Origin: a virus
DNA: 64,000 bases
Virus record (IMG/VR): IMGVR_UViG_3300042453_004886
Span: 96,001-160,000 of that record
Reading direction: 5' to 3' (one strand)
Part shown: one piece after another, positions 7,761 to 23,575 of the stretch
How the letters are laid out: the number at the start of each line of letters is the position of its first letter
Numbering within the stretch: position 1 is the stretch's first letter
The notes under the pieces: model-generated
What the model saw: only the letters and a program-made list of their open reading frames with translations
Database searches by the model: none
Told to the model about the DNA's origin: nothing
Program-made: the position numbers and the translations under genes

Positions 7761-8045
7761 TTAAGTAAAAAGCAAGAATGCGATAGCTTCCTGCATCTCT
7801 CTGAGGAAAACTTTGTCTTGATCGGTAAGCTCTGATTTCTTCAACCGTTTTAAACGCTCTAGAAGGTGCCTTGGAGTACCCTTGTATACCGAAACCATAC
7901 GCTCAACTGTATCTCCGATTTTACGGCCTTCCAGGACGGAATAATCGCGAATTGCCTCTGCGAACGATGCTGCAATGCTTGCATTGAACTGAACTTTGTC
8001 TTTTGGACCTTTTGCGTACTTACTTCTGTTATTTTCTGAGCTCAT
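7761..8045 (-). CDS. Ribbon-helix-helix (CopG/Arc-like) DNA-binding protein
   Basis: KVQFNASI strand pattern followed by two helices (FAEAIRDYSVLEGRKIGDTVERMV); 94 aa; convergent with the giant ORF. Confidence 0.55.
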   Translation of the reverse strand: MSSENNRSKYAKGPKDKVQFNASIAASFAEAIRDYSVLEGRKIGDTVERMVSVYKGTPRHLLERLKRLKKSELTDQDKVFLREMQEAIAFLLFT

Positions 8046-8411
8046 GACGTCATCTTGCCCCCAAATTTATTTTGAACCCTGGTTTTTATATACTGCCCTT
8101 AAATATTCTAGGATATTCTAGATATTCTTGTCTATAAAATTTATTGAAATAAAATCTAGATTTTCTGTATGCTGAAAATTTTTTAGCTATAAATTTCAGA
8201 TTACTTTATTTGAAAAATTCATTAGAAAACTTGCGGGATATCAATATAGGAAAATCTATATTCTAAACAGCGAAAGTAGAGCTGGATGGATGGGGTTCTA
8301 TATGGTCCCCCGGACACCCCCCTACACCCTACAAGGGTTTAGGGTATCGGTGTTCGTTCTGGACCATAGAGCCACACCTGTGCGTGTGGCCATGCTGCAT
8401 AGGAGGAAACC

Positions 8412-8915
8412 ATGCAGTTCAAGAAGAGCAAGCCCGTCAAGGGCAAGAAGCCCGTCGTCGCCGTGCCCGCCGCCAAGCCCCGCAAGGGGCTTCTGGCCCG
8501 GGTCGCGGAGGCCCTTGGCTTCGGCGCTCAGGCCCCGGTCCGCGACAGCGAGCTGGCCCAGTCCAGAATCTCCCGGGTTCTCCTCGACAACGCCCTCCGG
8601 GGCGAGCGCGAGTTCTCCACGGAGCTGATCAATCGGAGTCGCAAGACTCTGGAAGATCAGATCCGGGCGGTCCGGGCGGCGGGGGACTTCCGGGCCCCCA
8701 AGGCCGAGGCCCAGAACGTCGCTCCCGCTCCCGTCGTCGCCGCCGCTCCTGTCGCCGCCCGGATCTGGGGTGTTTTCAACACCCTTGACCGGGCCCGGCT
8801 GCGGGCGTGGTCCAAAGCTTGGGTCCAGGCCCAGGCCGAGGCCCAGGCCCAGGCCCAGGCCCAGCCCGTCGCCACCCGGGCGCGGGATTCCCGGGGGCGG
8901 TTCGTGAAGGCGTAA
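8412..8915 (+). CDS. Ala-rich basic early protein, paralog A (C-terminal RDxRGRF motif)
   Basis: AGGAGG Shine-Dalgarno; Lys-rich N-terminus; ends RARDSRGRFVKA; highly similar to 9143-9640. Confidence 0.8.
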   Translation: MQFKKSKPVKGKKPVVAVPAAKPRKGLLARVAEALGFGAQAPVRDSELAQSRISRVLLDNALRGEREFSTELINRSRKTLEDQIRAVRAAGDFRAPKAEAQNVAPAPVVAAAPVAARIWGVFNTLDRARLRAWSKAWVQAQAEAQAQAQAQPVATRARDSRGRFVKA

Positions 8916-9015
8916 GCCTCACGACCGGCCCAAACTCCCCATGGGCCTTGGTAACCCATGGGGACGCGACAGGTTTAGTAGTCTCATCCTATTAGAAAAA
9001 CTACTTTTCTTTTTC

Positions 9016-9072
9016 CTTTTCAGAGGGGGTCAGCTTTGCTGACCCCCTTTAAAAAGAGCGACTGGTGCGTAC
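9016..9072 (+). promoter_or_regulatory. Hairpin-repeat element copy 1 (putative phage RNAP promoter)
   Basis: AGGGGGTCAGC-TTT-GCTGACCCCCT hairpin + TTAAAAAGAGCGACTGGTGCGTAC, then an ACCCTTTT box; upstream of 9143. Confidence 0.7.
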
Positions 9073-9142
9073 TTAACGTAATAGTCAAACCCTTTTACAG
9101 AGCCACACCTGTGCGTGTGGCCACACTGCAGAGGAGAAAACC

Positions 9143-9640
9143 ATGCAGAAAAAGAAGAAGACCGTCGTCGTCGCTGTGCCCGTCGCCCCCGCCGCCGAGC
9201 CCCGCAAGGGGCTGTTCGCCCGGGTCCTCGAGGCCCTCGGTTTCCGCTCGGCGCCGCTCGTGCGCGACAGCGAGCTCGACCAGCCCAGGCTGTGCCGGAT
9301 GCTCCTTGACAACGCCCTCCGGGGCGAGCGGATGGTGTCGGAGGAGATGCTCAACCGGGGTCGTAAGACCCTGGAGCAGCAGATCCAGGCGGTCAGGGCG
9401 GCTGGGGACTTCCGGGCCCCCGTCGCCACGCCCGTCGCCGTCGCTCCCGTCGCCGTCGCTCCCGCCGCCGCTCCCGCCCGGGTCTGGGGTGTCTTGAACA
9501 CCCTGGATAAGGCACGGCTTCGGGCCTGGTCCCGGGCTTGGTCCGAGGCCCAGGCCGAGGCCCAGCCCGTGGCCGAGCCCGTGGCCGAGCCCGTCGCCAC
9601 CCGGGCCCGGGATGCCCGGGGCCGGTTCGTGAAGGCGTAA
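9143..9640 (+). CDS. Ala-rich basic early protein, paralog B
   Basis: GAGGAG SD; ends RARDARGRFVKA; tandem duplicate of 8412-8915, with shared leader and trailer. Confidence 0.8.
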   Translation: MQKKKKTVVVAVPVAPAAEPRKGLFARVLEALGFRSAPLVRDSELDQPRLCRMLLDNALRGERMVSEEMLNRGRKTLEQQIQAVRAAGDFRAPVATPVAVAPVAVAPAAAPARVWGVLNTLDKARLRAWSRAWSEAQAEAQPVAEPVAEPVATRARDARGRFVKA

Positions 9641-9740
9641 GCCTCACGACCGGCAACAGATCCCCATGGGCCTTGGTAACCCATGGGGACGCGTAGAGGT
9701 TTAGTAGTCTCATCCTATTAGAAAAACTACTTTTCTTTTC

Positions 9741-9797
9741 CTTTTTAGAGGGGGTCAGCTTTGCTGACCCCCTTTAAAAAGAGCGACTGGTGCTTAC
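9741..9797 (+). promoter_or_regulatory. Hairpin-repeat element copy 2
   Basis: Same hairpin as copy 1 + TTTAAAAAGAGCGACTGGTGCTTAC. Confidence 0.7.
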
Positions 9798-9855
9798 TGG
9801 AAGTAACAGTCTAACCCTTTTGCGGCCATTTTAATCACGAAAGGAGGTGATAAGT

Positions 9856-10011
9856 ATGCGGATGAGCATGGAAGAGAAGTACGTTCGTAGGCGCCAGAAC
9901 CTGGCGCTGTTCGTTCTTCTCGTCCTGTTCCTCGTCGCTGGCGCGATGGAGAACCCCATGGATCGGTTTTCCTTGGGGTCCTCCACGCCCAGCAGCGTGG
10001 AGCAGGACTAA
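9856..10011 (+). CDS. 51-aa small membrane protein (not in ORF track)
   Basis: AAGGAGGTGA SD; MRMSMEEKYVRRRQNLALFVLLVLFLVAGAMENP..., with one hydrophobic helix. Confidence 0.65.
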   Translation: MRMSMEEKYVRRRQNLALFVLLVLFLVAGAMENPMDRFSLGSSTPSSVEQD

Positions 10012-10020
10012 TTGACTTCC

Positions 10021-10052
10021 TACTCGGCGCTAGCGCCGCAATGCGCTGAGTA
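10021..10052 (+). repeat. Branched hairpin element copy A
   Basis: TACTCGGCGCTAGCGCCGCAATGCGCTGAGTA; near-identical at 12820-12851 and 17333-17364. Confidence 0.8.
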
Positions 10053-10056
10053 GGCT

Positions 10057-10117
10057 CTTTTTGAGAGGGTAGTAGCTTCGGCTGCTGCCCTCTTTAAAAA
10101 GAGGGATCGGTGCTTAC
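10057..10117 (+). promoter_or_regulatory. Hairpin-repeat element copy 3
   Basis: GAGAGGGTAGTAGC-TTCG-GCTGCTGCCCTCT + TTAAAAAGAGGGATCGGTGCTTAC. Confidence 0.7.
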
Positions 10118-10215
10118 CCCTTTCTAAGGTCTTACCAGGCCTTGCTGTCGCACATTCGTCAGAAATCCCTTTCCCCCCTTTCAGGGGGGATTTTGCCATG
10201 AAAGGAGAAACTACC

Positions 10216-11649
10216 ATGGCAAGCTCAATTCGCGACGCGTTCCTCCCCCTCATTCCGGAGCTGAAGCTCCGGCAGGAGGCGCGGAGGGAAGCCCTCCGCG
10301 CGGACCGCCGGCAGGCCCGGGCAGAGGCCCGAGAGGCCGGCAAGGCCAAGGAGGCGCTCCGGGCGGCTAAGCGGTCCGAGCGCCGCGCCGCCCGCCAGGT
10401 GGCCGCCCATGAGCGCCGCGAGGCCCTCAAGGCGGCCTTTGCAAAGGCCGCCGAGGGCCGCCCCAAGTGGGTCCAGGTCGCCTCCCGGGTGCTACTCATT
10501 CACCCGGACGAGGTCGCTAGACGGCCTCGAAAGGCCGTCCTGGGAGCGCTTCCCACCTGGGCGCTCGTGGACCTGTACTGCCCAGACCCCTTCTGGGAAG
10601 GGGTTATCTGGGAAAACCTCTTCCACGAGGGGGAGGAGCTTATTTCCCGAGAGTTCCTGGAGAAGATCCTCCGGGGCACTTCTTGGAAAAAGCTCCAAGA
10701 GGCTTTTTCCAGATGGTGCCAGCTCGAAAACAGGCCCCCGGAGTGGGAGCCCTACGCGGCGTGGAAGTTCTTTATCTCCGGTGTTTACACGGGGGGCAAG
10801 AAGTTCTTCCCGCTAGCGGGAAGGGTCAGCCACATCCAGGGCATCCTGGAGCACGGCCCAGCGCCGGAAACCCTGTCGGAGGAGGACCTGGATGCCTACG
10901 TCCGGCATCCTGGGGAGTTCAGGCTGAGTGAGCTCCTGGAGAGCGCCGAGGATCGGAAGAACCTCGCGGTTCTCCAAGAGTACCTGGAGCGCCAGCGGGA
11001 GACGTATCTCCCGGAGGAGTTCCGGGAGATCACTGCCAATCAGATCCTCAGCAGGTGGAAGACGCACAAAGACGTGCGCTTCCGCCTGGAAGGGCAGGAG
11101 TGGAGCTCTCCCGACGGGAAGATGGCGGCCCGGTTCTTGCCCAGGACCGACATCAGGGGGCTGCTGGCCGGTGACATCACCGACTGCTGCCAGCACCCTA
11201 TCGGGGCAGGGTCCGAGGCTGCCTGGGACGCGGTCAGGCAGCCCAGCACGGGCAACCTGGCCTTCTTCCGGAAGGGCCGGATTGTGGCATTTACCTGGGT
11301 GTGGGAAGCCCAGGACGGGAGCATGGTGCTTGACTCGATCGAGTACCTGAGCTCCCGCTACATGCCAGAGGTGGCTCAGGCACTTGCTGCTTTTGCAAAG
11401 CAGCTGAGGTGTGAAGGAGTCTCCACCTTTTGGGTTGGGGGCTACTCTGAAGCAGAGCTGGCCTCCCAAGTCCGGGTCCTGGCGGGATTGCTAGGCAGTC
11501 CTCGGTGGGTAAAGGCTTCCCAAGAGGGGGCCTCCCTGAATGGGGAAACTCTCCAGGGCCCCAACCTGGTCCCTTCCGGGGAATTGCCAAAGCCCGTCTT
11601 TTGGATGGGCTACTCGGACCTGCACTACAACATAGTCAGGTTCGATTGA
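10216..11649 (+). CDS. PcfJ-like domain protein (GNAT-like fold)
   Basis: C-terminal GDITDCCQHPIG...AFTWVW...MVLDSIE pattern resembles phage PcfJ-like proteins. The N-terminus is an Ala/Arg/Glu coiled region. Start chosen at the ATG after the AAGGAG SD (ORF track start 10198). Confidence 0.5.
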   Translation: MASSIRDAFLPLIPELKLRQEARREALRADRRQARAEAREAGKAKEALRAAKRSERRAARQVAAHERREALKAAFAKAAEGRPKWVQVASRVLLIHPDEVARRPRKAVLGALPTWALVDLYCPDPFWEGVIWENLFHEGEELISREFLEKILRGTSWKKLQEAFSRWCQLENRPPEWEPYAAWKFFISGVYTGGKKFFPLAGRVSHIQGILEHGPAPETLSEEDLDAYVRHPGEFRLSELLESAEDRKNLAVLQEYLERQRETYLPEEFREITANQILSRWKTHKDVRFRLEGQEWSSPDGKMAARFLPRTDIRGLLAGDITDCCQHPIGAGSEAAWDAVRQPSTGNLAFFRKGRIVAFTWVWEAQDGSMVLDSIEYLSSRYMPEVAQALAAFAKQLRCEGVSTFWVGGYSEAELASQVRVLAGLLGSPRWVKASQEGASLNGETLQGPNLVPSGELPKPVFWMGYSDLHYNIVRFD

Positions 11650-11692
11650 TGGGCTGGAGTTTGGTAGTACCTCCATCAATAAAAACTACCAC

Positions 11693-11758
11693 CTTTTTTA
11701 GAGGGGCACACAGCTTAGGCTGTGTTGCCCCTCTTTAAAAAGAGGAACTGGTGCGTAC
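11693..11758 (+). promoter_or_regulatory. Hairpin-repeat element copy 4
   Basis: AGAGGGGCACACAGC-TTAG-GCTGTGTTGCCCCTCT + TTAAAAAGAGGAACTGGTGCGTAC. Confidence 0.7.
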
Positions 11759-11801
11759 TGGACGTATTGGTTTACCCCTTAGCTCTTGAAAGGAGCTAAA
11801 G

Positions 11802-12227
11802 GTGATCACCGTTTGCAACAAGGAAAACTACCTTATTATTGAGGACGAGGTGCTCGACCTCGTCCGAGGCCAGTACCCCGCAGGAGGGCTGGCCCAAGTC
11901 GTCGGTGCGGAGAGCTCGCACCGGGTCGTCACTCTCCGGGACTGCGGAGACCTAGTGGGCATTTGCCTGCTTGACGTCGAGGAGGCCACGGTCGACGACC
12001 TCGTCGTCAAACCCAGGTACAGAAAGTACCTGGGCGAGATGCTCGCCTCGGTCCGAGAGATCGCCGGAGAAGGGGCTTGGACGGCGTACTGCCGGGCTAA
12101 GACGTCTGCTGTCACCGTTCGGGCTATGGCCCGCAGGGGGCAGCTGAGGCTTCTCCATCTCGGAGAGCCGGAGTACGACGACTACTTTGCCGAAGAGATG
12201 GTGGAGGTAGAGTTTCAGCTACTCTAG
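11802..12227 (+). CDS. GNAT-fold acetyltransferase-like protein
   Basis: LVGICLLDVEEATVDDLVVKPRYRKY resembles GNAT motif A; AAGGAG SD, GTG start. Confidence 0.45.
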   Translation: MITVCNKENYLIIEDEVLDLVRGQYPAGGLAQVVGAESSHRVVTLRDCGDLVGICLLDVEEATVDDLVVKPRYRKYLGEMLASVREIAGEGAWTAYCRAKTSAVTVRAMARRGQLRLLHLGEPEYDDYFAEEMVEVEFQLL

Positions 12228-12254
12228 CCTCCTTCCTGAGTGACTTCCTGAAAC

Positions 12255-12320
12255 CTTTTTTAGAGGGGCACACGGCTTAGGCTGTGTTGCCCCTCTTTAA
12301 AAAGAGGGAATGGTGCGTGC
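12255..12320 (+). promoter_or_regulatory. Hairpin-repeat element copy 5
   Basis: Hairpin as in copy 4 + TTAAAAAGAGGGAATGGTGCGTGC. Confidence 0.7.
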
Positions 12321-12364
12321 ATTGGGCAGCACTTAACCCCCTTTCATGTTCAGGAAGGATCCAC

Positions 12365-12550
12365 ATGAACATGAATGCCACCCGGAGCGATGTGTTCCGG
12401 GCTGTCGTGCAGGAGAACAAAATCCTGCGCGAGCGTCTTGAGGAATGTCAGAGGTTGATCAATCTCTTTTCGGACCTCGAGACGCGCCTTGCTGAAGAAA
12501 GGGCAAGGCAAATTGAGTTTGAACGGGAGCTCTTCTGGAGCTGCCGTTAA
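12365..12550 (+). CDS. Small coiled-coil hypothetical protein
   Basis: GGAAGG SD before ATG 12365, in frame with ORF 12284-12550. Confidence 0.6.
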   Translation: MNMNATRSDVFRAVVQENKILRERLEECQRLINLFSDLETRLAEERARQIEFERELFWSCR

Positions 12551-12557
12551 AACTCAC

Positions 12558-12612
12558 CTTTTTGAGAGGGGGCAGGGATGCCCCCTCTTTAAAAAGAGGG
12601 ACCGGTGCGTAC
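12558..12612 (+). promoter_or_regulatory. Hairpin-repeat element copy 6
   Basis: GAGGGGGCA-GGGA-TGCCCCCTC + TTTAAAAAGAGGGACCGGTGCGTAC. Confidence 0.7.
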
Positions 12613-12672
12613 TGGATGCATTGGTTTACCCCTTTGTTACGCGGCCATCTCTAAAAGAAAGGAGGTGATTAC

Positions 12673-12801
12673 ATGATGGAGTCGGATTTCCTCCGGGCCG
12701 AAGCGGCCCTCGAGGAGGCGATCCTCCGGGCTGAAGAAGCTGCCGAAACGGCGGCAGCCCGGGAGGAGTGGGCCGCTGCTTTCGCGGCGGTCTGGGGTTA
12801 G
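12673..12801 (+). CDS. 42-aa acidic helical peptide, copy 1 (not in ORF track)
   Basis: AAGGAGGTGA SD; MMESDFLRAEAALEEAILRAEEAAETAAAREEWAAAFAAVWG; paralog at 17191. Confidence 0.75.
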   Translation: MMESDFLRAEAALEEAILRAEEAAETAAAREEWAAAFAAVWG

Positions 12802-12819
12802 TTTTTTCGTTTCTTTTCC

Positions 12820-12851
12820 TACTCGGCGCTAGCGCCGCAATGCGATGAGTA
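12820..12851 (+). repeat. Branched hairpin element copy B
   Basis: TACTCGGCGCTAGCGCCGCAATGCGATGAGTA. Confidence 0.8.
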
Positions 12852-12855
12852 GGCT

Positions 12856-12916
12856 CTTTTTGAGAGGGTAGTAGCTTTAGCTGCTGCCCTCTTTAAAAAG
12901 AGGGACCGGTGCGTAC
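12856..12916 (+). promoter_or_regulatory. Hairpin-repeat element copy 7
   Basis: Same type as copy 3 + GAGGGACCGGTGCGTAC. Confidence 0.7.
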
Positions 12917-13011
12917 TAGCACTAAAGGTTTCCTCCCAGAAACAAAGGAAGATGAGCTCACTCGGTGAGATCTTCCTTGCTGTCAGAGACAGCAATGTTG
13001 CGTACATAAAA

Positions 13012-13053
13012 GCGGGGTCTAACCCCTCTTTAAAAAGAGGAATTGGTGCGTAC
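13012..13053 (+). promoter_or_regulatory. Hairpin-repeat element copy 8 (short hairpin)
   Basis: GGGG-TCTAA-CCCCTCTTTAAAAAGAGGAATTGGTGCGTAC, directly upstream of RNAP-like gene 1. Confidence 0.65.
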
Positions 13054-13171
13054 ACGCATTAAATGTCTTCCTTTTTTCCCCGGATTTTTTATCGCGTAAT
13101 CCGGTGATCGCCATATACTTGGCGCCCTTTGCTCGGGGAGAGAGCGTTTTCAGCGCATGAGGAGGAAACCA

Positions 13172-16100
13172 ATGCGTATGAACAAATTGGTGAATCAAAA
13201 GCACCAAGCGCTGGCGAAGCTGGCGGTGGAGAGATTCAAGAAAGCACAGGAAGCTCCTGAGGAGAAACCTGAGCCGACTATGGATCTCATCGCTCGGGCG
13301 AACGAGAAGGCTGTTGAATACAGCCGGCTTCGTAAGCTTGCCCTTGAAGTTCTCTCTCATGAGAGCTCTGAAGAGGGCTGTGTCGAATTCGGGATCAAAC
13401 CTGAAGACGACATGGGCGTAATTCGCCGCAAAGTGGTGAACCGTTTCAAAGCGGGTAACCACTCGGTGGTCCGGGGCGAGCTCAAGACGCTGTTCCCTCG
13501 TCACGAGGAGGACATCTACGAGCCCGCCGAGGTCACCAAGCAGGATGTTGCCGACATGGCACTCCTGTTCGGCGCGGAGTGGCCCACCGACGAAGCCTTC
13601 GGCTTGTTCGGTGTTACCTTTGACTGGGACAATGCCGGAAGGCTTGTTGTCAACGGTAAGAAGGCTCTGAGGAACGTCATCGCCGTTTTCGGTGGTGGTA
13701 TGCCTCACGAGCTCTTTCAATATCAGACTGCAGCTCTGGTATTGTTGGCCGCCCAAGGTGCTGCAGCCCAGGAGCGTGAGAGGTTTGCATCAAACGCAAG
13801 CCCTTACCAGGTCCAGAAAGCGCTGACGAAAGCCTTCCAGAAGGTGATCAACAGCGGGCCTGTGAACAAGGGTAGCGAACAACCGGCCTACGGGTTTGTT
13901 GATGCAACCTGTGCGCTCCGACTCAAGGAGATCGTTCGACCGATCGAAGTCCTGCTGGTAGAAGATAGCATCGTCTACCTGGAGCAGATTGATCCCATTC
14001 TTGGCAACAAGATGGTGAAAGAACTGCACCCGGACTACGGTGTGGATATCGAATCGGGTAACTACCGGCCTGCCGGTAAGATGCTCGACGAGAACCACAT
14101 CGCGGTAAGGTCGAGCGATGGGGCCAAAAGTGCCAAGCGCACCCGTATGGCCTCAGGTGAGCAACAGGAACCGGTGAATCCTGTGCTCTCTCGTGTTTCC
14201 TACAGAGGAACTCGAGCAACCGGCTCCCTGATCACCGCGTTCCTTGCGCCGTGTGCAGACCCGTTCTTGGCGGGTGGTCCTGGCGGTAGCCTTGATTTGT
14301 CGGGTGAAACCGGCGTCAAGACCAGCTACTGGGACGACGCGCTGCACAGCGGCACGAGCTTCGATATCCGTTCCGCCGAGGATAGAGAAGCCTTCCTGAA
14401 CACCCTCCCCAGCGATGGGGATGTTCTCGGCGAGACCCTTAGCGTGTTTGGCGCCCCACCTGTCAAGGTGCCTTCAGACGCTAGGGGCGTGGTCACTAAG
14501 GTGACCGCGGCCCCCGATGGAGCCTACCGCAATATGCGGTGGCAGGTGCATAGTCGTTTCAAGGAAACTTCTGTGTTCACCAAGCTCCGCGGATCAATCA
14601 AGACGATGGTCTCTGCAGGCCTAGTTGCGAAGATCCGACTCGGGGAAGGGTCCATCACCCACTTCGACATCCGCAATAGCGGACTTGCCCTGTCGGGGTG
14701 GGAAGGAGAGGATTTGTTCCTCTCAGGAGACGCATTCAAGGGAACCGGGAAAGGCAACAGCCAATTCCGGGTGGAAGTCGCCGTTGAAACGATATGGCAT
14801 TTCCTTCCTTTGGAAGCGGACAGTCTCCTATCCTCTCTGCTCCCGGAGGCGCTCTACAAGGGCGGAATCGTGGAGTATGACGAGGCGTTCGATCTCGACG
14901 GGGCTTACGAGCCTCTGATGAGGGAATTCGAGCGTCGTTTTGCCAAAGTCGCTGACCTTGGTAAGACAGTCGAACTGCCTGAAGTCTGGGACAAGTGGTT
15001 GCTTGAGCATGCCACGAAGGTCGGGCTGAAGGTGGAAGACCTCGTCTGGAGCCCCTTCCAAAAGGAGGGAGTCACTGGCAAGCAGGTGGCTTTCAACATT
15101 GGTAAGGGTATCACGGGGCTCCCAGAGTACCGCGTATTTGTACTTTACGACGATGGCTGCAAGGCTGTTGTGAGGACCACGACTGCGTTTAAAACCGCGA
15201 TGTTGGTCCGTGTAGAGTACGGAAGCGTCAGGAAGGCAGCCAGCAAGGCCCAACTTATGCTCGAAGTCGCTTACGGCGCTAAGGCAATGGGTCTTGACGA
15301 GCTCGCTGAGTTCCTCGAGTACGAGGGGCGTTCCAAAGCGCGTGCGGTGCTCAAGCTCATCCGTTCGGTTGGTCCCAAGGCAGCAATTGCTGAGGGAAGT
15401 CGAGTAATCGATGCCGCCGAAGCAACGGATGAGGACCTGCTTGAGATCGAAACCCTGCTCGAGAGTGATCTCGAAGCATGGCCGGAAGATCTTGTTATCG
15501 AATGCAAGTTCGAGGACAAGAACGGAAAGCTGTGGAGAGTTGTCTTGGCTCACCACTTGGTTTCGGTCATCTCAAAGGAGAACCCCCAGAGAAAGGCAAT
15601 CTCTGGCATTCTCGATGCGATCCTTAACAAAGATCGTACAAGGTTCGAGAATAACATCCGGGTCCTTGAAGGTGGGCTGTCTAACATGGTTTCTTTGGCC
15701 AATAAGAAACTGTGGAAGAAGGTTCACGCAGGTCCAAATGCTGCACACGGTAAGCGGGTCATCGTACTCGCCTCTCACGTGGGCTGCCATGAGGAACTGC
15801 TCGTCAATCCGTTCGGCAAAAATGCTAGACATCTAGCCAAGCAGAACGGTTGCGAGATCAAGGAACTGGATGGGCGGTGGGTAGTCGTCCAGCGAGCTCC
15901 ACAAAGCCTGCCGATTTTGCTGAGAATCGTGTTAACCACGGCTATCGGTAAGAACGTGTTCGGCATGACGGACCTTGCTGCCTCGATCGACAACGGCGAT
16001 CACGATGGAGACACTATCCTCGTGACGGTCATCCCTGACCAAATCGCCGAAGTGACCCTGCAGAAGTACAACGCTCGCAGAAAGTCGCTGTCGATTCACG

Positions 16101-16975
16101 AGGGTACGCACAAGGCGGATCCGTATCACTGGATCGAGCAAAACACGTTTGTGGATGGAAAACACAACGTCTGGGCTCGTCCTTCCGTGGTTACGGTTGA
16201 AAACTTGCGCAAGTACGACGAGGCGGGCATCCGGGCATATACACTTGAAATGCCTTCGGATGCCAACAGGGCACACCTCGCCCTTGCCATCGCTTCGATG
16301 CAGCTTCCCACAGGCTGGGGGGAGTTCAGCATCGAGGAGGCCAACGGCCTGATGTTCAGCGTCTACGAGCCGGAGCTTGGTGGTTTTAACCCCAAGTTCG
16401 CTGCTGCTCATGCCGCAATTGCCAATCTTGGCAATGAACGTCTCAAGGAGTTCCTCCAAGCTACGGATAAGCTCGACCTTCGGGAAGACTTCGCCAAGGC
16501 TTGGCTTCGGTCCGCAGATGCCAAAAGCTGGTGTCAGAAGACCGTGAGTTACGCAAAGTTTAACAGCAATGGAAAGCTTTCCGTATGGAACCTCACCCAG
16601 GCCACGGTCCCTCAGGAGCAGAGGCTCGCAGCCGTACCCAGGTTAGTTGCTTTTGCAATGAAACTCCTGTCAGTTGGGAACGTCAACAACCAGTTGATGC
16701 TCAATCTGGACAAGGTCGTTGTCGAGAGCATGGTCAAGGAGACCAAGGGCGAAAACCGGCGTTACTACCCGGTTCTAGTCAAGGGTAAGCCAGAAGTGGT
16801 CGAGCTGAAAAGCGTGATCAAGAAACTGGCAGCAAAGGGAGTCCCGGGCGCTCAGCGCTTGGAGATCTGGATGGACCACATCCTCCCTGAGTTCTCCAAG
16901 TACCACCCCAAGGAGTACCATGCCGCAATGGCCTTCAACGGGGACTACGATTGTTCCGATTCGGAGGAAGAATAG
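13172..16975 (+). CDS. Single-chain two-barrel RNA-polymerase-like protein, paralog 1
   Basis: VVVQRAP...[14 protein letters not shown] (nt 15998-16012) matches beta-prime NRAP...[29 protein letters not shown] resembles [28 protein letters not shown] supplies a DPBB-B-type lysine pair. GAGGAGG SD before ATG 13172. Confidence 0.72.
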   Translation: [1267 protein letters not shown]

Positions 16976-17070
16976 CAAACTGATCGGGAACTTGGCGGCT
17001 TTGTCTTAAGAACGCACAGAAAGTGCAAAAGCAAAGCTGCTAAGTTACCTGATCAAGACAACTAAATAAC

Positions 17071-17132
17071 CTTTTTAACAGAGGGGGCTGGTTCATTCCA
17101 GTACCCCTCTTTAAAAAGAGGGACCGGTGCGT
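17071..17132 (+). promoter_or_regulatory. Hairpin-repeat element copy 9
   Basis: GAGGGG(G)CTGG-TTCATT-CCAG(TA)CCCCTC + TTTAAAAAGAGGGACCGGTGCGT. Confidence 0.7.
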
Positions 17133-17190
17133 CGGTGCGTCCAAGGTGCAACCCTTTTGCGGCCACTTAATCACGAAAGGAGGTGATTAC

Positions 17191-17310
17191 ATGATGGAAG
17201 ACTTCCTCGCGGAGGCCATCCTCCGGGCTGAAGAAGCTGCCGAAACGGCAGCAGCCCGGGAGGAGTGGGCAGCTGCTTTTGAAGCCCTGGACCAGTGGGT
17301 CTGGGGCTAG
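17191..17310 (+). CDS. 39-aa acidic helical peptide, copy 2 (not in ORF track)
   Basis: AAGGAGGTGA SD; MMEDFLAEAILRAEEAAETAAAREEWAAAFEALDQWVWG. Confidence 0.75.
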   Translation: MMEDFLAEAILRAEEAAETAAAREEWAAAFEALDQWVWG

Positions 17311-17332
17311 TTTCTTGTTTGTTTTCCTTTCC

Positions 17333-17364
17333 TGCTCGGCGCTAGCGCCGCAATGCGTTGAGTA
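17333..17364 (+). repeat. Branched hairpin element copy C
   Basis: TGCTCGGCGCTAGCGCCGCAATGCGTTGAGTA. Confidence 0.8.
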
Positions 17365-17368
17365 GGCT

Positions 17369-17427
17369 CTTTTTGAGAGGGTAGTAGCTTCGGCTGCTGC
17401 CCTCTTTAAAAAGAGGGACCGGTGCGT
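17369..17427 (+). promoter_or_regulatory. Hairpin-repeat element copy 10
   Basis: Same type as copies 3 and 7, directly upstream of RNAP-like gene 2. Confidence 0.7.
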
Positions 17428-17548
17428 CGGTGCGTCCAAGGTGCAACCCTTTTTGCAGGTTTTTCTCGTGGAACCTGATGATCGCCATACAGCTGGCGCC
17501 TTTTGGTCGGGGAGTGACCGCATGCTAGTCGAAAGAAAAGGTAGGACT

Positions 17549-20500
17549 ATGATGTCCGAATACCTGAAGCTTCGCGAATCGGTAGCAAGTGCTCTGTTGG
17601 GTGACACCAACGAGCACGGGCTGCCGCCCGTCGAGGCCGGCTTCGAAGCCTTCAGCAGACAAACTGCTAAGGCGCTGAAATCCTTGGGAATGGCATTCCA
17701 GGGTGCAACCCTTGTGGAAGAAGAGTTTAACAGACTCTTCGGAAACTTGGGCGATCACGGGTGGGAGCTCACCCCCGTGGACCAGATGGACCTTGTTGTC
17801 CTCTCGGTTATGCTGGGAGCGCAATTCCAGGGATGGGAGACAATTTCCTTTGATAAGGAGATTCTCTCGTTCGATCAGGCTGGCAACCTGGTCGTCGGTG
17901 GCCGCAAGGCTATCGGCCCCGTGCTGCTCGTGCAGAGCGTCAGGGATCTTGGGAATCCCGTCGTCGTAAATACGGCGGTGCTTTCCAAGTACCAGGCCGC
18001 GGCCTACGTCATGCTTCTCGGAGCACGTCGTGGCCTGAGTTCCGCCTTGAAGGCGTGCGACCGGTTCCTCATCGATCCCGAACAGGGGTTCATCGATGCG
18101 GATCGGAAAAGACTCCTTGACGGGAGTCTCCGCGTCGTCGAGGTAGAGCTCCTTGGCAATCTGCTGGAGCCCGTCGAAAAGACCGACCGTCTGCTCGTGA
18201 ACTCGGTGGTTCGGGAACTGCTTCCCAACTACCGCGTTCGCGCCTCAAAGGACAGCTACGCCCCATTCGGAAAGCTGGCCCCGGTACCTGGTTTCCTCGA
18301 CGTTCCAACCGTCGACGAGGCCAAAGGCGTGAAGCGGGCGGATGCCGCAGATGTCACTCAGTGCAGACCGGTTAACCCCGAGCTCTGCGCTCTGTCGTAT
18401 CAAGGCACGCGGGGCACAGGCGTTCTCTTGGACGTCTTGCTCGCCCCGTGCGGTCTCGCGACACTCACCGGGTTCGGAGACGGAACCGCTGCAGTGCTCT
18501 CCCGAGAATTCGGGGACAAGGCAGCCTTCCATGATCCGTTCGTGGTGAGGGCCACCAGTTTCGCGGTCAAGAGCCAGGAGGACTGCGAAAAGTTCATGGC
18601 GACTATTCCCAAGGTAGGGGAAGAACTCGTCGGCAGCAAGTTGAGCGTGCACGGTGCGCCAACGAAACTGTTGCCCCTTGGCAAGAAGCTCGTCACCGGG
18701 GTCTCCCAAGCCACGGAAGACCCCACGTATGGCAACATACGCTGGGAAGTGAGGGGCGAGGCAATCGACCGTAGCGGAGATGGTAAGCTCCGCGGGCTTC
18801 TCAAAGCCATGACGGTGTTCCCAGCCGTCAAGATCCACCACGGGCATGGCTTCCCGTGGAAGGAACTTACCAGGAACGAACTCGTCATCGCCCTTCCGGG
18901 CAATGTTAGGACGAAGTTTGACCTCCTAGCCGGGATGGCGTGCTGGAAAGGCAGCGGAAAAGGCTCGGGTAAAAACCGGGTCGAGACCGCCGTCCAGACC
19001 TTCAAGCGGCACCTTACCCATGATGAGTTCGAAACTCACATGGGGGAGGTACTCCCCGCTGAGGGCTTCGACGCCGATGGCACCCCACGCTACGACGAGA
19101 CCGTAGACGTGGGTGGAGGATACTCACAGCTGGTCCAGTCTTTCGAGGAGCACTATGCTGTTCCTCTTAGGATTGGCCGTCTCATCGCCAAGGACCTGTG
19201 GTCCAGGCTTCTGGATGCTTACCTCAGACAACTGGGTAAGCGGAAAGCAGACCTGGAGTGGGAGCCCACCCCGATTGGTGGCCAGGCAGCCAGCTTGGAA
19301 ATCATGAAGGGAATCACGGGCAAACCGGAGGTGCTTACGTTCGTCGTCCTTGACGATGGGCGGACAGCGCTTGTGCAGCAGACAACTGCATTCACCACAG
19401 CCATGGTGCTGAAGGTGGAGCACACGTCTGTTGCCCGGAGCGTGTCGATCGCGCACATGATGCTGGACGCTGCCATAGCGTTCAAGGCACTTGGGCACGA
19501 GAAGACCGCTCGTTACCTTGAAGAACAGTCCAGGACCCCTGCAAAGGGTGTCGAGCGGCTGTTTGACTTGGTAAACGGGCACATCCCGGTCAGCCACAGG
19601 ACCGTCGGTCTCCACCCCGGCAAAAGCCGGCTGCTCCCCGAGGGAACCGCCATGCTCAAGGCCATTATCGAGAGCGATCTCGAGACCTGGCCTGCTGATC
19701 TCTGCCTCAGTGCAGGGCTCAACGAGCAGGAGTTCTGCGTCGACAGGACCGTTCTGGCAACCATGCACGCGGAATCGCCGCAGCGGGGTGCCGTGAAGGG
19801 GCTGATCGAAGCAGCTCTTGGCGGGGATCTCACCCGGTTCCAGAACAATTTCCGGACGCTTCGCGCCGCTTTGCACAAGATGCTCAGCGCCGCGAACAAG
19901 GGTTTCTTCAAGAAGCTCATGTCTGGACCGCGAGGCTCCCATGCCAAGCGTGTCCCGATCACCTCGTCCGGTGCTGCTCATGATGAACTTCAGATCCACC
20001 CAAAAGGGCAGGTCTGGAGGAATTTGGAAACCATCTTGGGAGAGAAGATGGTGGACGGGCAGTATGTCCTGCTTCTCCGGGCGCCGATGAAGACCCCGAG
20101 CTTGCTCAGGGTCAAGTCGTCGTTCTCCGTAGGGGTGAACAAGTTCGCCGTCTCCGAGAAAACCGCGTCGTCGTCACGAGGTGATTTCGATGGAGAAGGC
20201 GTCGTAGTCGTCCCGCTGTCCCAAGAGGCCGTCGAGGAGCTTCTGAGCGCTAACTACAGCGCTTGGGAGCTCAGCTTGAAAGCTCACTCGATCAAGACGG
20301 GAGGCGAATTCCACTGGGAAGACGCCAACCTGCTGATCGATGGAAAGCACAACGTTTGGGGTAAAGCCAAGCGTGTGTCGATCCAGAGCTCGATCGCGCT
20401 CGATGAGGGAACCATCCGGGCCTACCGCATGGAAATGCCCGGCGACGCCAACAAGGCCACCATGGCCCTCATGTTGGCTGCAATGGGCAAGTACCAGCTG

Positions 20501-21127
20501 AACAACGTCCTTGGGCTTCTCTTCGAAGTCTGGGAGGCGGAGCTTGGCGGGTACGATCCGAAGTTTGCTGATGCCCACAAGGCAATGCAGATCGAGGATC
20601 CCATCGAGCGCGAGGAGGAGTTCCTCAAGGCATGCGCCAAATTGAACTTCACGGAGGAGTTCGGGCGTGCTTGGCTTTCCATCTCCGCGGCGAAAACCTC
20701 AACGATGAAAGCCCTTCAGAAAGGCTATCTCATTGGGGAGCACATGACGTTCCGGCACGTCATCAGCCAGAGCACTCCTGCCGACGAACGATCGATGTCC
20801 GCATGGATGGCGATCGCGTTCGCGATGAAGCTGCTTTCGAGCGGTGAAATCAACAACGAACTCATGCTCAACCTCGATATTGCCCGAGTTGAGAATTGGG
20901 TGGTTGTCGGTAAGGACCGGAAAGGCAAAGACATCCAGCGCCCCACCGGAGAAAGCTACGACCTTGCACAAGGTATCAGCTTCCTCTGGAAGCAGGGGCA
21001 CCCTGCGGCTACTCGGCTGCAGCACTGGATGATGGCGGTTCTTCCGAGGCTGCGCGAGTTGAGCAAGGAGAAATCCTACAGGGCTTTCAGCCCGGACATG
21101 CTCAACAGCTCATCTGAGGAAGACTAG
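17549..21127 (+). CDS. Single-chain two-barrel RNA-polymerase-like protein, paralog 2 (DFDGE variant)
   Basis: YVLLLRAP...SSRGDFDGEGVVVVP (nt 20183-20197); GKLRGLLK; colinear similarity to 13172-16975 along its length. Start chosen at the ATG after AAAGGTAGG (ORF track start 17441). Confidence 0.7.
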   Translation: MMSEYLKLRESVASALLGDTNEHGLPPVEAGFEAFSRQTAKALKSLGMAFQGATLVEEEFNRLFGNLGDHGWELTPVDQMDLVVLSVMLGAQFQGWETISFDKEILSFDQAGNLVVGGRKAIGPVLLVQSVRDLGNPVVVNTAVLSKYQAAAYVMLLGARRGLSSALKACDRFLIDPEQGFIDADRKRLLDGSLRVVEVELLGNLLEPVEKTDRLLVNSVVRELLPNYRVRASKDSYAPFGKLAPVPGFLDVPTVDEAKGVKRADAADVTQCRPVNPELCALSYQGTRGTGVLLDVLLAPCGLATLTGFGDGTAAVLSREFGDKAAFHDPFVVRATSFAVKSQEDCEKFMATIPKVGEELVGSKLSVHGAPTKLLPLGKKLVTGVSQATEDPTYGNIRWEVRGEAIDRSGDGKLRGLLKAMTVFPAVKIHHGHGFPWKELTRNELVIALPGNVRTKFDLLAGMACWKGSGKGSGKNRVETAVQTFKRHLTHDEFETHMGEVLPAEGFDADGTPRYDETVDVGGGYSQLVQSFEEHYAVPLRIGRLIAKDLWSRLLDAYLRQLGKRKADLEWEPTPIGGQAASLEIMKGITGKPEVLTFVVLDDGRTALVQQTTAFTTAMVLKVEHTSVARSVSIAHMMLDAAIAFKALGHEKTARYLEEQSRTPAKGVERLFDLVNGHIPVSHRTVGLHPGKSRLLPEGTAMLKAIIESDLETWPADLCLSAGLNEQEFCVDRTVLATMHAESPQRGAVKGLIEAALGGDLTRFQNNFRTLRAALHKMLSAANKGFFKKLMSGPRGSHAKRVPITSSGAAHDELQIHPKGQVWRNLETILGEKMVDGQYVLLLRAPMKTPSLLRVKSSFSVGVNKFAVSEKTASSSRGDFDGEGVVVVPLSQEAVEELLSANYSAWELSLKAHSIKTGGEFHWEDANLLIDGKHNVWGKAKRVSIQSSIALDEGTIRAYRMEMPGDANKATMALMLAAMGKYQLNNVLGLLFEVWEAELGGYDPKFADAHKAMQIEDPIEREEEFLKACAKLNFTEEFGRAWLSISAAKTSTMKALQKGYLIGEHMTFRHVISQSTPADERSMSAWMAIAFAMKLLSSGEINNELMLNLDIARVENWVVVGKDRKGKDIQRPTGESYDLAQGISFLWKQGHPAATRLQHWMMAVLPRLRELSKEKSYRAFSPDMLNSSSEED

Positions 21128-21217
21128 CTGTGTCACAAATAAACTCGAGCTATCCCACGAACGCACACGAAGTGCAAGGGATGCTCGAGTTTTGCTGTGA
21201 TTCGATCAACTAAATAA

Positions 21218-21281
21218 CTTTTTAACAGGGGGGCTTGGTTCATTCCAATGCCCCTCTTTAAAAAGGGTAACTGGTGCGTAC
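21218..21281 (+). promoter_or_regulatory. Hairpin-repeat element copy 11
   Basis: Hairpin like copy 9 + TTTAAAAAGGGTAACTGGTGCGTAC, then an ACCCCT box. Confidence 0.65.
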
Positions 21282-21484
21282 AAAAACTCACAATCTACCC
21301 CTGAGGCGGCGTCCCTATGAACAACGTGCTCTATGAGCACGGATTTGGTTTGGCTGGGGCCTTCGGCCCCAGGCAAACCGTTCGGACACGCCTGCGGCGT
21401 GGGGGATCACGCCTGCGGCGTGAGGGACTGCGTCCCTAGGACTATCCAGGCCTTGCGGCCTGGATAAGTTGGGGCGAGGTAAGT

Positions 21485-21554
21485 CGTGCTCAAACCGGAG
21501 GGGAGGGCTGGCGCCCTCCCCTCCGGTTTGGCACAGCGGCGCTTCGCGCCGCGG
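21485..21554. repeat. Long GC stem-loop repeat, copy 1
   Basis: GTGCTCAAACCGGAGGGGAGGGC-TG-GCGCCCTCCCCTCCGGTTTGGCAC + GCGGCGC-TTC-GCGCCGC; repeated at 22182. Confidence 0.8.
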
Positions 21555-21636
21555 TCTCCGTTGTTGGGGTTTGTGGGTTTCAGTGGGGTTAATTGACGGG
21601 GAATACCCCCAGTCACACTCAACGCAAGGAGGAACC

Positions 21637-22107
21637 ATGCGACACTTGATCGATCCCACTAGTCTCCGGGAAGTCACCAGCTCGGCCGGCAACACGGCCC
21701 TGCTGGGGAAGTTGATCACGGGCGAGGACTTCGCTATCCAGTCGAGTCAGAAGTTCGATGGCGCAGCTCAGATCCACGAGCTGCACACCCGGCTGACGGA
21801 GAGCGGGAACCCTGTCTGGCTCTGGGGACTTGCCCCCTCGGAGCGGACCGGCAGGCTGGAGTGCTGGGTCAACCGGGCCCTGCTGCTCGGATCTCTGTCG
21901 GACGAGCAGACTCTCCGGAAGCTCCAAGCGGTCTACCCGCAGGCGAGCTTCTTCTCCGGATGGGGCATCGAGTCCGAGGAGGACGCGCTGACGCGCCTCC
22001 TCCTCGGAGCTCAGGCTACCCAGGCTCCCGCTCCCCAGGCCGCTGCTCCCGTCACAAAGGCCCGCCGCAAGGCTGAGGCCAAGGCCGCGGAGGAGCTGCC
22101 CTTCTAG
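21637..22107 (+). CDS. Hypothetical protein with SSB-like acidic C-tail (EELPF)
   Basis: AAGGAGG SD; Ala/Pro linker then EELPF. Confidence 0.6.
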   Translation: MRHLIDPTSLREVTSSAGNTALLGKLITGEDFAIQSSQKFDGAAQIHELHTRLTESGNPVWLWGLAPSERTGRLECWVNRALLLGSLSDEQTLRKLQAVYPQASFFSGWGIESEEDALTRLLLGAQATQAPAPQAAAPVTKARRKAEAKAAEELPF

Positions 22108-22181
22108 CGAAGGGCAGCTCGGGGACCCCAGAACGCTTCGCGTTCTGGGGTCCCAACCCCAGCGGTTCACTTTGTCTGTTT

Positions 22182-22251
22182 CGTGCTCAAGTCGGAGGGG
22201 AGGGCTGGCGCCCTCCCCTCCGACTTGGCACAGCGGCGCTTCGCGCCGCGG
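22182..22251. repeat. Long GC stem-loop repeat, copy 2
   Basis: Same as 21485 copy, with compensatory changes (AAACCGG/CCGGTTT to AAGTCGG/CCGACTT). Confidence 0.8.
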
Positions 22252-22778
22252 CTTCCACGGCGTCAATTCCCCTCTCCCGGGGAATTGGTGGAGGGGTAGC
22301 TTCGCTACCCCCGCCTGGCGGCGGCCAAGCGTGGGCTTGGGTCGGTTCAGTCCGGCCTTCCCGCGTCTCGGCTGCCACTGAAGCCGGACGCCCCGGCCCG
22401 GCCCCCCTTCGGGGGGCCGGGCCGGGGGCGTTTTGTTGCGTACACTATACAAGGGTGTGCAACAAAGCGGAAAATTTGAGGGGAAAGACCTCTGGTAACA
22501 CTCACGTCACGAAAGCCAACACCATGGCAAGACGTAAGTTACCATTTGGCAACCCCTCAAACCACCTCTACCGGGTGGGGACATCCGGTAGAAACCCGTG
22601 AAAACGGGAGTTGTCCGTACCAGACAAGTTCTTGCAGGAGCTTGTCTGGGTAGCGGGTGTGGCTGCAACCACACACGGTACTACGGACCTTTGAAGCCGA
22701 GGCTCTGAGACTGATCAGCTCAGGGCCTTGGGCTTCATTGCTTTACACAAAATCAATTTTACACATAAGGAGAAACCT

Positions 22779-23105
22779 GTGTTCATTAACCTCACGCCTC
22801 ACACCATCACGGTGCTTGACCAGGACTCCGTCCTGGTCAAGGCGATCCCGCCCTCCGGGGCGGTGGCTCGCCTGGAGAAGCGGGACGGGGATGCCATCCT
22901 CGTGGATGGGATCCCCGTCAAACGTCCCCATTTCGGGGAGGTCATGAACCTCCCCGAGCCCCAGGATGGGATCTTTTTCATTGTGTCCGCCATGGTGCGG
23001 ACCAGTCCGGGGCTGCTCTCCCGAGGAGACTTGGTCTCCCCTGCGGACTTCGTCCGGGACAGCCAGGGAAACATTGTTGGCTGTCGGGCGTTCGACGCCA
23101 ACTAG
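22779..23105 (+). CDS. Conserved viral hypothetical protein (NLTPH family)
   Basis: FINLTPHTI...LPEPQDGIFFIVS...GDLVSP...RD..G.IVGC pattern recognised from many phage proteins; AAGGAG SD before GTG. Confidence 0.6.
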   Translation: MFINLTPHTITVLDQDSVLVKAIPPSGAVARLEKRDGDAILVDGIPVKRPHFGEVMNLPEPQDGIFFIVSAMVRTSPGLLSRGDLVSPADFVRDSQGNIVGCRAFDAN

Positions 23106-23159
23106 GTCAGTAAGTCAGGGCCGGGCTATAAGCCCGGCCCTCGCTCGAGAGGAGAACCC

Positions 23160-23294: not shown

Positions 23295-23575
23295 GCGAAC
23301 CAGGGCCGGGCTATAAGCCCGGCCCTCGCAACACTGCACGTGCTCGAACGGACCTTCGGTGCGTACATAACGTAGCGATCGCCACCAGCGGAGCTATATT
23401 GCGTACACCAGCTAAAGGTGTCCCTAGGACTAACCGGAGCAACGTGCAAAAAAATTGATGGGGGTAACCCCACCAAGGCCTGATTTCGCAAGAAATTAGG
23501 TGGGAACTGTCTTGGGGCTTTTCCCTCTGACATTCCCAAATGTCGTAGCCGATTCTATTCGTAAAGGAGGCCAGC

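Follow-up and report, generated by a model that had tools for sequence, protein, structure and literature searches.

The window analysed here is a stretch of 64,000 nucleotides, positions 96,001-160,000 of the 194,626-bp uncultured phage record IMGVR_UViG_3300042453_004886, and the subject is a repeated two-hairpin element, or cassette, that stands between genes of a GC-rich island in it. The boundaries of the island are sharp, with ~58% GC versus ~40% across the genome, and its ~24 genes are all co-directional on the + strand and have strong Shine-Dalgarno sites. Two of them encode RNA polymerases (RNAPs), which are paralogs with 33% identity and share the motif DxDG(D/E):

8290-28300, + strand: GC-rich island, 55-61% GC, GC content at third codon positions (GC3) of 0.66-0.90
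13172-16975, + strand: RNAP-A, 1267 amino acids (aa), a single-chain two-barrel RNAP by its predicted fold, with the metal motif GDHDGD
17522-21127, + strand: RNAP-B, ~1201 aa, start uncertain (open frame beginning at 17441), with DFDGE where RNAP-A has DHDGD

The 15-mer CCYCTTTAAAAAGRG has 11 matches, all on the + strand, versus 0.33 in shuffles, and these lie at window positions 9044, 9769, 10089, 11730, 12292, 12584, 12888, 13025, 17106, 17401, and 21253. The whole 194,626-bp genome holds no additional copy of it. A covariance model trained on 15 element copies and run over the genome returned the same 11 places, with E values from 3e-26 to 4e-11 and nothing else under E 0.05, its minus-strand matches being palindrome echoes. 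An 11-mer of the element is also the most repeated non-coding 11-mer of the genome. Every copy lies between genes and within the first 13 kb of the island, and a cassette precedes each island gene from the second to about the eleventh. An earlier note on this DNA had described eleven copies, on the + strand only, always intergenic and never in AT-rich DNA, and the word count, the genome scan, and the covariance model confirm all of this, with the 11 copies lying within the ~58%-GC island. A further degenerate copy that it had placed at 8315-8355 does not hold up: the covariance model is silent there, and what this stretch shares with the 9044 copy is just the 5' leader of paralogous genes and a loose box-like CGGTGTTCGTTC. 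The eleven copies represent ~6 stem types and, given that some pairs are 95-97% identical over 100 nt, they are not eleven independent samples.

Each element measures ~95 bases and is made of two abutting hairpins, H3 and H4, around an invariant core of ~30 bases. H3 reads, in order, T-run, AGAGGG collar, covarying top, CCCTCT collar, and TTTAAAAAGAG; the T-run, the stem, and the A-run form one hairpin, with a U-run/A-run base below the conserved AGAGGG/CCCTCT collar and the variable top. It has 16-26 pairs and a folding energy of -26 to -35 kcal/mol (z -4.4 to -8.1 versus dinucleotide shuffles), and its loops of 3-6 nt are unconserved and differ among stem types. In H4, the 5' arm consists of a 4-nt spacer and the GGTGCGTAC box, the loop has 5 nt, and the 3' arm is formed by the semi-conserved bases before ACCC. 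In 8 copies this second hairpin comprises 10-12 bp; in ~5 its stem is shorter or its register shifted, and in ~5 it is poor. Counted from a 10-mer box, (A/T)ACCC follows at a fixed distance of 13-14 nt because H4 ends directly before ACCC. In the global fold H3 and H4 lie 0-3 nt apart and are followed by single-stranded (A/U)ACCC(C)UUU; a U3-6 run stands 5-6 nt beyond the H4 stem, but pairing of the A-run with CC(U)CUUUU would place it immediately behind the stem.

The invariant ~30 nt lie across the H3/H4 junction and read CCCTCTTT-AAAAAGAG, 4 nt, and G[G/T]TGC[G/T]TAC, and the spacing of TTTAAAAAGAGN, 4 nt, and G[G/T]TGC is the same in every copy. Nearly all invariant columns of the element fall in this one block (H3 3' collar, A-run, spacer, and box), while their pairing partners vary. 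Two purines stand right after the A-run in most of 21 copies. The earlier note's description of the single copy holds for the greater part. A T-run with a stem-loop is found in ten copies and is missing at 13025, which has no T-run, no long 5' arm, and only a 5-bp mini-hairpin. Most copies carry the box (C/T)GGTGC(G/T)TAC, three ending otherwise (GTGC once, GTCG twice), and (A/T)ACCC occurs at its fixed distance in 8 of the 11 copies and not in the remaining ones. The position ahead of a Shine-Dalgarno site, said to be invariable, does not apply to the copy at 12888, where another element follows. The copies are as follows, with letters for the stem types:

9014-9100, + strand: copy 1, stem type a, in the spacer of g1 (8412-8915) and g2 (9143-9640), with a T-rich run, H3, A-run at 9048, box at 9064-9072, H4, and AACCC
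9739-9825, + strand: copy 2, stem type a, between g2 and the 51-aa g3, with the box GGTGCTTAC and a compensating A in the H4 3' arm
10054-10145, + strand: copy 3, stem type b, preceding g4 (10216-11649), with two conserved T.G wobbles and a poor H4; a hairpin H2 lies upstream at 10019-10053
11692-11786, + strand: copy 4, stem type c, preceding g5 (11802-12227), with H3 at 11691-11745, H4 at 11746-11772 (11 bp including five G.U pairs), box at 11750-11758, and TACCCC at 11773
12254-12348, + strand: copy 5, stem type c, preceding g6, with an A-T to G.T change, a box that ends in GTGC, and a shorter H4 in another register
12557-12640, + strand: copy 6, stem type d, preceding the 42-aa peptide gene g7 (12673-12801), with an H4 of 11-12 bp
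12853-12944, + strand: copy 7, stem type b, followed by a hairpin with a TGTTGCGTAC box at 12978-13005 and then by copy 8
13001-13079, + strand: copy 8, truncated, without T-run and long 5' arm, with a 5-bp mini-hairpin and the full CCCCTCTTTAAAAAGAGG and box; the final signal before RNAP-A
17070-17162, + strand: copy 9, stem type f, between RNAP-A and the gene of the 39-aa peptide (g9), with a partly duplicated box
17366-17457, + strand: copy 10, stem type b, preceding RNAP-B
21217-21309, + strand: copy 11, stem type f, after RNAP-B, with a C-G to T-A compensatory change and an A-run that ends in GGG

Parts of the element also occur farther along in the island:

22391-22470, + strand: modular variant, in which a 17-bp ordinary GC hairpin and TTTT are followed by a TGTTGCGTAC box in an 8-bp H4-like hairpin, with no A-run (pairing read from the sequence)
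23357-23406, + strand: boxes without H3, CGGTGCGTAC at 23357 and TTGCGTAC at 23399, upstream of g16 (23576-24031)

The genome scan found no use of the box or of the word GGTYTAMCCC outside the island and, for this reason, the signal is not a general phage promoter. Within the box, a GTG (TTG in relatives) stands 5 nt after an AGAGG that resembles a Shine-Dalgarno site, e.g., in 11738-11790. The mini open reading frames (mini-ORFs) that begin there have 3-25 codons and mostly start MRT, and in the copies examined by eye their peptides are not conserved.

The stems of H3 vary in sequence with their pairing kept, as the earlier note had stated. When 18 copies are anchored on the A-run, each of the positions -6 to -13 shows 3-5 Watson-Crick pair types, and the anchored pair table also contains an A-T/G-C exchange in the collar. 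The covariation of H3 is genuine, though many of the stem tops go back to a common ancestor. RNAalifold on a MAFFT alignment reported no covariation given that the variable stems were misaligned, and it was replaced by the anchored pair table; an arm-swap test was uninformative because many stem tops carry a CAGC...GCTG core by descent. For H4, pairing is found in register in 74.5% of cells versus 30-45% with the partners slid, and in three of its pairs both partners have changed, among them those with the two polymorphic positions of the box (GCGT/GCTT and GGTG/GTTG).

A transition within a stem leaves G.T in one strand but A.C in the opposite one, and this allows the two strands to be compared. 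In 18 copies of H3 the + strand has 35 G.U and 1 A.C, and the minus strand 13 G.U and 15 A.C; the + strand hairpin is more stable in 16 of the 18, by up to 13 kcal/mol. For H4 the summed energy is -171 kcal/mol on the + strand versus -85 on the other. This bias to the sense strand means that H3 and H4 have been selected as RNA. The hairpins act as RNA, a role as non-template single-stranded DNA being less likely, and the GGTGCGTAC box is transcribed, given that it lies inside the RNA hairpin H4.

Relatives were reached solely by way of protein clusters and profiles. The polymerase family has few members, with 42 hits at E <= 0.001 among 1.84 billion representatives in the profile search, and the contigs of five other lineages were read. 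Contig collections of viruses, metagenomes, and genomes, scanned with two element patterns, gave chance matches only (isolated copies in AT-rich contigs that lack the hairpin); a related-locus search with RNAP-A and the giant-protein tail found nothing, nor did megablast and tblastn against GenBank phages. The element is present in contigs L015, L020, L021, and L027, where the polymerases are 25-50% identical to those of the island. L015, L016, L009, and L021 form one lineage with the same synteny as the window and polymerases 45-49% identical, where the tail of the giant gene comes first, then a small divergent gene and an AT-rich spacer that contains conserved ATATTCTAG repeats, and finally the island. 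There the first island gene is the polymerase, with no cassette ahead of it, and cassettes that have new stem tops and GTTGCGTAC stand between the later genes. H3 and the A-run are missing ahead of the first island gene both in the window and in L015. Two cassettes with GGTGCGTAT are present in L020, and L027 has three with G[G/T]TGCTTAC, beside a polymerase that is only ~25% identical. L022 and L026 show a GC hairpin followed by CTCTTTAAAAAG only, with no GGTGCGTAC box; in L026 a different 7-bp hairpin follows directly and TACCC stands 26 nt past the A-run. From this comparison, the GC hairpin with CTCTTTAAAAAG emerges as the oldest and most general unit, to which the box and H4 have been added as a module.

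The one-sided conservation of the core is unlike that of a pure helix, and the core is retained without the long 5' arm in the copy at 13025, in L021:4464-4560, in L022, and in L027:120-160. Taken together, these two observations indicate that the block is read sequence-specifically.

The relatives also inform on how the cassettes change. L022:1-12186 corresponds to window positions 13172-29268, and its DNA identity is 98% immediately past the right edge of the island and 84% across the final genes within it. Its single polymerase is 27% identical and lies in a tight operon without cassettes, and the 98% identity of the backbone against 27% for the polymerase marks the polymerase part of the island as a swappable, hypervariable module. 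The type b copies are 95-97% identical over 100 nt and are flanked by genes that are unrelated or 33% identical, and L015 and L016 diverge exactly past the box, which indicates that the cassettes evolve in concert and mark joints of recombination. The first two island genes, g1 and g2, are paralogs with 65% identity whose 3' untranslated regions and cassettes are 92% identical across 170 nt; together, these identities of gene, untranslated region, and cassette point to a tandem segmental duplication. The left island junction is reproduced in the independent assembly of L015, and for this reason the island is not a chimera. The composition of the island has not drifted toward that of the backbone, though the polymerases of relatives have diverged to 45% identity; possible causes of its high GC are selection for duplex stability, GC-biased gene conversion, and repeated import.

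The polymerases of the island were characterized by structure prediction. The last 968 residues of RNAP-A were modelled with AlphaFold (AF2) on a 17-sequence alignment from the profile search, giving a predicted local distance difference test (pLDDT) of 88 and a predicted template modelling score (pTM) of 0.86. Foldseek with this model returned 128 PDB hits at E <= 0.001, and among the matches listed all are RNAP large subunits. An independent aligner (VIA) matched the model to QDE-1 (Z 13.2 over 448 residues), P74 gp62 (Z 9.9), and P23-45 gp96 (Z 9.2), as well as to RDR2 and crAss gp66. On the strength of the model, RNAP-A is predicted to be a single-chain two-barrel RNA polymerase with QDE-1 and gp64/gp96 of P23-45 as its nearest counterparts, and both island polymerases are provisionally assigned to this class. 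The likeness is in fold only: the PDB profile search gave nothing for the island polymerases, and hhalign of RNAP-A/B against P23-45 gp64 gave a probability of 0.2%. Pfam and PHROGs had no usable match for 18 island proteins or for the neighbouring regulator. The two polymerase genes have a conserved common 5' leader outside the cassette, at 13090-13150 and 17455-17520 (GATCGCCATA..TGGCGCC..TCGGGGAG), which may be an autoregulatory RNA structure. Before each of them lies a gene for an acidic peptide, of 42 aa (12673-12801) and 39 aa (17191-17310), both with AILRAEEAAETAAAREEWAAAF; the 51-aa gene (9856-10011) has a leader in common with these two, and L015 has an unrelated 52-aa gene at the same position.

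To the left of the island, an AT-rich spacer (8046-8290) separates it from a divergent gene of 94 aa (7761-8045, minus strand), and this spacer is conserved in L015:1118-1310. Two ATATTCTAG repeats in it overlap a sigma70-like TTGTCT, 16 nt, TAAAAT arrangement, and TGGATGGNTGNGGTTCTATATG and ACCCCCCTNCACCCT are found farther along, at the island edge. The spacer probably serves the island as a regulated entry promoter. Looked up by exact sequence, the 94-aa regulator matched the same phage only. Matches to sigma70-like boxes occur nowhere but in this spacer left of the island, and no pair of -35 and -10 hexamers spaced by 16-18 nt is found at any element, as the earlier note had indicated. On the other side, an AT-rich non-coding region (28352-28671) adjoins the right edge of the island and contains six direct repeats with a 33-nt unit (TTCAGTATCTCCACTAAATAAAGGTTTACCCCA-like), the later ones being followed by CACTAGNNCTAGTG palindromes. 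The array, which could be made of origin iterons or be a binding array, is unique within the genome, and L022 keeps part of it; the word GGTTTACCCC also terminates H4 in two cassettes.

Comparison with known systems places the cassette nearest to the early region of Thermus phage P23-45. A published map of it has 14 promoters for the virion RNAP, as well as 7 termination sites that share a conserved motif of 26 nt (PMC10770324). In this phage, the pre-early spacers of 60-77 nt contain a conserved hairpin and T-run and then a conserved motif before each gene, including the gene of the non-virion RNAP. Both systems have one conserved hairpin and motif per spacer in a set of co-directional early genes that includes a single-chain two-barrel RNAP gene, read here from the DNA alone. 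In P23-45 the run of short early genes ends with the non-virion RNAP, and the giant two-barrel virion RNAP gp96 is encoded separately. The differences are nonetheless clear: the promoter motif of P23-45, TTATTCCTTT, has no sequence similarity to the cassette motif; its hairpin is followed by T5-6, whereas here TT(T) and A5 follow and a T-run precedes; the second hairpin on the box and the GC-rich island in an AT-rich genome are features of the present phage; and function has been mapped in P23-45. Several pre-early hairpins of P23-45 (L019:1291-8104, minus strand) have an AGAGGG...CCCTCT collar and T's, as here; this is a lead only, and it could be a coincidence or a common termination signal of the virion-polymerase group.

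Other systems resemble the cassette in part. The early region of T7 has RNase III sites, which are long hairpins in the spacers of the early operon that leave protective terminal stem-loops on the mRNAs; they are characterized by an internal loop, have no adjacent invariant box, and are cut from a polycistron made by the host RNAP. The likeness lies in the conserved long hairpins in every spacer of the early operon. With intrinsic terminators the element shares a GC-rich sense-strand stem-loop just past stop codons and the order of A-tract, H4, and CC(U)CUUUU, and it differs in that the runs of H3 are reversed (U-run before, A-run after) with only U2-3 directly behind, short of the 4-5 or more U expected within ~8 nt of such a stem. 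A canonical terminator formed by an upstream hairpin and T-run was considered and set aside, being found in only about half of the copies. Rfam covariance models gave best E values of 0.08-0.7, far below gathering scores, and a literature search for the motif returned unrelated primers only.

The reading that we favour, tentatively and with somewhat less than an even chance of being right, is that each copy is a terminator-promoter punctuation cassette of a self-contained polymerase island, its promoter being predicted. H3 in the sense RNA would close and protect the message of the upstream gene in a terminator-like manner, and the invariant ~30 nt, as double-stranded DNA, would be the site where a phage two-barrel RNAP, either the giant virion enzyme or RNAP-A/B, begins the next message. 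The start would be at the purines just past the A-run, with H4 becoming the 5' stem-loop of the new RNA, and every early gene would thus be its own short transcription unit. We infer the termination at H3, the promoter activity of the core, the polymerase that reads it, and the position of the start; what can be inferred robustly is that the element marks a boundary, with the 3' hairpin of one RNA on one side and the 5' hairpin of the next on the other. The earlier note had proposed a new class of promoter. A polymerase-specific transcription signal is indeed the best reading, but not a hairpin promoter of the N4 kind, given the sense-strand hairpins, the stems of 16-26 bp, and the two-barrel RNAPs. 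Its expectation of a start near ACCC, with the box as an upstream DNA element, is argued against by the position of the box in the transcribed H4, and it is for this reason, together with the two purines in most copies, that the start is put after the A-run. A terminator or processing role, which the earlier note had set against its promoter proposal, makes up at least half of the story.

Termination with re-initiation is favoured for five reasons: the invariant core is DNA-like; there is no H3 ahead of the first island gene; modular variants exist, with a terminator and then a box at 22391-22470 and lone boxes at 23357 and 23399; the polymerase genes lie behind up to ten strong hairpins and need to be expressed; and the architecture of P23-45 is a close precedent. 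The missing H3 at the first gene and the hairpin-less boxes after ordinary hairpins fit with separable 'end' and 'start' modules. With regard to the polymerase involved, the analogy with P23-45 points to the virion enzyme as a possible reader, and the distribution of the cassette, which goes together with one polymerase clade and is missing from L022 with its identical backbone, points to RNAP-A/B as the alternative candidates. That one word of ~30 nt serves both as an RNA signal, its 3' arm ending a message and its 5' arm capping the next, and as the DNA promoter of a QDE-1-like RNAP is possible and rather doubtful.

Several points weigh against this interpretation. The promoter activity of the cassette is a prediction. 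H3 is followed by only U2-3 and A5, with no U-tract, and a terminator scan does not call it. The covariation of H4 is not significant, given that 70 of 500 column shuffles yield at least as many doubly changed cells as were observed, and H4 is weak or missing in ~5 of 21 copies. The high identity of some copies is the product of concerted evolution and not of eleven independent constraints, and the near-invariance of CTCTTTAAAAAG beside polymerases that are 25% identical could be due to a host factor that is conserved. Just left of the island stands a conserved sigma70-like promoter together with operator-like repeats, and the whole island could be a single host-made transcript that needs no internal promoters. 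Moreover, the A-run can pair with the U-run past ACCC, giving a second canonical-looking terminator (A-tract, H4, CC(U)CUUUU), and the cassette could in that case be a tandem terminator without a promoter.

The main alternative, which the sigma70-like promoter and the pairing of the A-run with the U-run keep in play and which we regard as a minority possibility, is punctuation in RNA only. One long transcript would run from the left edge, and H3-H4 would be either a site of processing or stability, where the RNA is cut around the H3/H4 junction (by a phage nuclease, or by RNase III or RNase E of the host) and protective 3' and 5' hairpins are left on every mRNA, or a tandem attenuator that grades expression along the island; no promoter would be involved. 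This explains well that H3 and H4 are both sense-strand structures 0-3 nt apart, that H3 with its 18-26 bp is long enough for RNase III, that the box is within an RNA hairpin and hence transcribed, that the sigma70-like promoter and repeats are conserved to the left of the island in both the window and L015, that the first island gene has no cassette, and that A-tract, H4, and CC(U)CUUUU look like a canonical terminator. Nonetheless, a pure RNA helix would not usually have a contiguous invariant core of 30 nt opposite arms that are freer to vary, and several copies keep this core without the long hairpin. Eleven serial terminators would starve the distal polymerase genes unless overridden, and the phage encodes no RNase III, although the host enzyme could act. 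P23-45, the closest studied system, has a mapped promoter in each spacer of this type (PMC10770324).

A DNA promoter in the manner of N4, in which supercoiling would extrude H3 as a cruciform and a phage polymerase would read the hairpin with the adjacent box, is unlikely. The early promoters of N4 establish the principle: there, a T7-like single-subunit virion RNAP recognises a template-strand hairpin that has a stem of 5-7 bp and a conserved, purine-rich loop of 3 nt with its centre at -11 (PMC4496689). As in N4, inverted repeats precede early genes of a phage with its own polymerase and stem variation is tolerated if pairing is kept; also in favour are a long, nearly perfect inverted repeat whose A/T base lies in DNA of 58% GC, and a rigid spacing of hairpin and box. 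However, neither the short stem with a conserved loop, nor the template-strand hairpin, nor the T7-like RNAP is found here. The stems have 16-26 bp and the loops are unconserved, the better hairpin is on the non-template strand (the template version has 15 A.C mismatches and loses up to 13 kcal/mol), the core and box are kept with just a 4-5-bp mini-hairpin in 13025 and L027:120-160, and the island polymerases are two-barrel, as RNAP-A is by its predicted fold.

Processive antitermination of the nut/rrn or put kind, where CUCUUUAA RNA and the hairpins would load host Nus factors or act on the polymerase directly and allow read-through, is very unlikely. Two abutting stem-loops make up the put RNA of HK022, which recalls H3-H4. 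CUCUUUAA is present in all copies and agrees with 8 of the 9 bases of the rrn boxA, UGCUCUUUA, which in rrn operons stands in the order boxB hairpin, boxA, boxC (PMC2724277), and this boxA-like octamer is the most widely conserved part of the element, being kept in L022 and L026 without the GGTGCGTAC box. But boxA is defined as a single-stranded (U/C)GCUCUUUA near the 5' end of an operon, and NusB/NusE bind it single-stranded, whereas here H3 holds the octamer in paired form in most copies and every spacer contains it; such sites are expected once or twice per operon. The match was moreover noticed post hoc, against an rrn consensus that may not be that of the host.

Least probable of all is a translation-linked start of the mini-ORF in the box or an attC-like recombination site of a gene-cassette array. 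The AGAGG ahead of GTG/TTG and the ORFs of 3-25 codons (copies translated by eye) speak for the former and the cassette content of L015 and L016, which differs exactly after the box, and the 95-97% identical type b copies between unrelated genes for the latter, but the mini-ORF peptides are unconserved with differences at first and second codon positions and real genes have much stronger Shine-Dalgarno sites, and no tyrosine recombinase (PF00589 has no match in the genome while controls match) and no complementary cores of the R'/R'' type were seen.

The cassette is therefore real, sharply defined, and lineage-specific; it is of a known kind, phage-polymerase-specific transcription punctuation, in a new form, and its promoter role is plausible. 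YonO, gp64 and gp96 of P23-45, crAss gp66, and the relatives of QDE-1 form a recently recognised branch of cellular-type polymerases, and to our knowledge little has been published on how single-chain two-barrel RNAPs find their start sites and stop. The island offers a dense and evolutionarily tracked candidate signal, with natural variants that have no 5' arm, no box, or a compensated box, and with two island RNAPs adjacent, so that recognition of promoters and terminators by this family of enzymes is testable in vitro without culture of the phage. If only the RNA is punctuated, the island would be a clean example of hairpin punctuation in a phage early operon. If each cassette both ends one message and starts the next, it would represent, as far as found, the first defined promoter-and-terminator grammar for this polymerase clade, a signal kept across lineages whose polymerases are ~25% identical and part of a portable, GC-rich, self-transcribing module.

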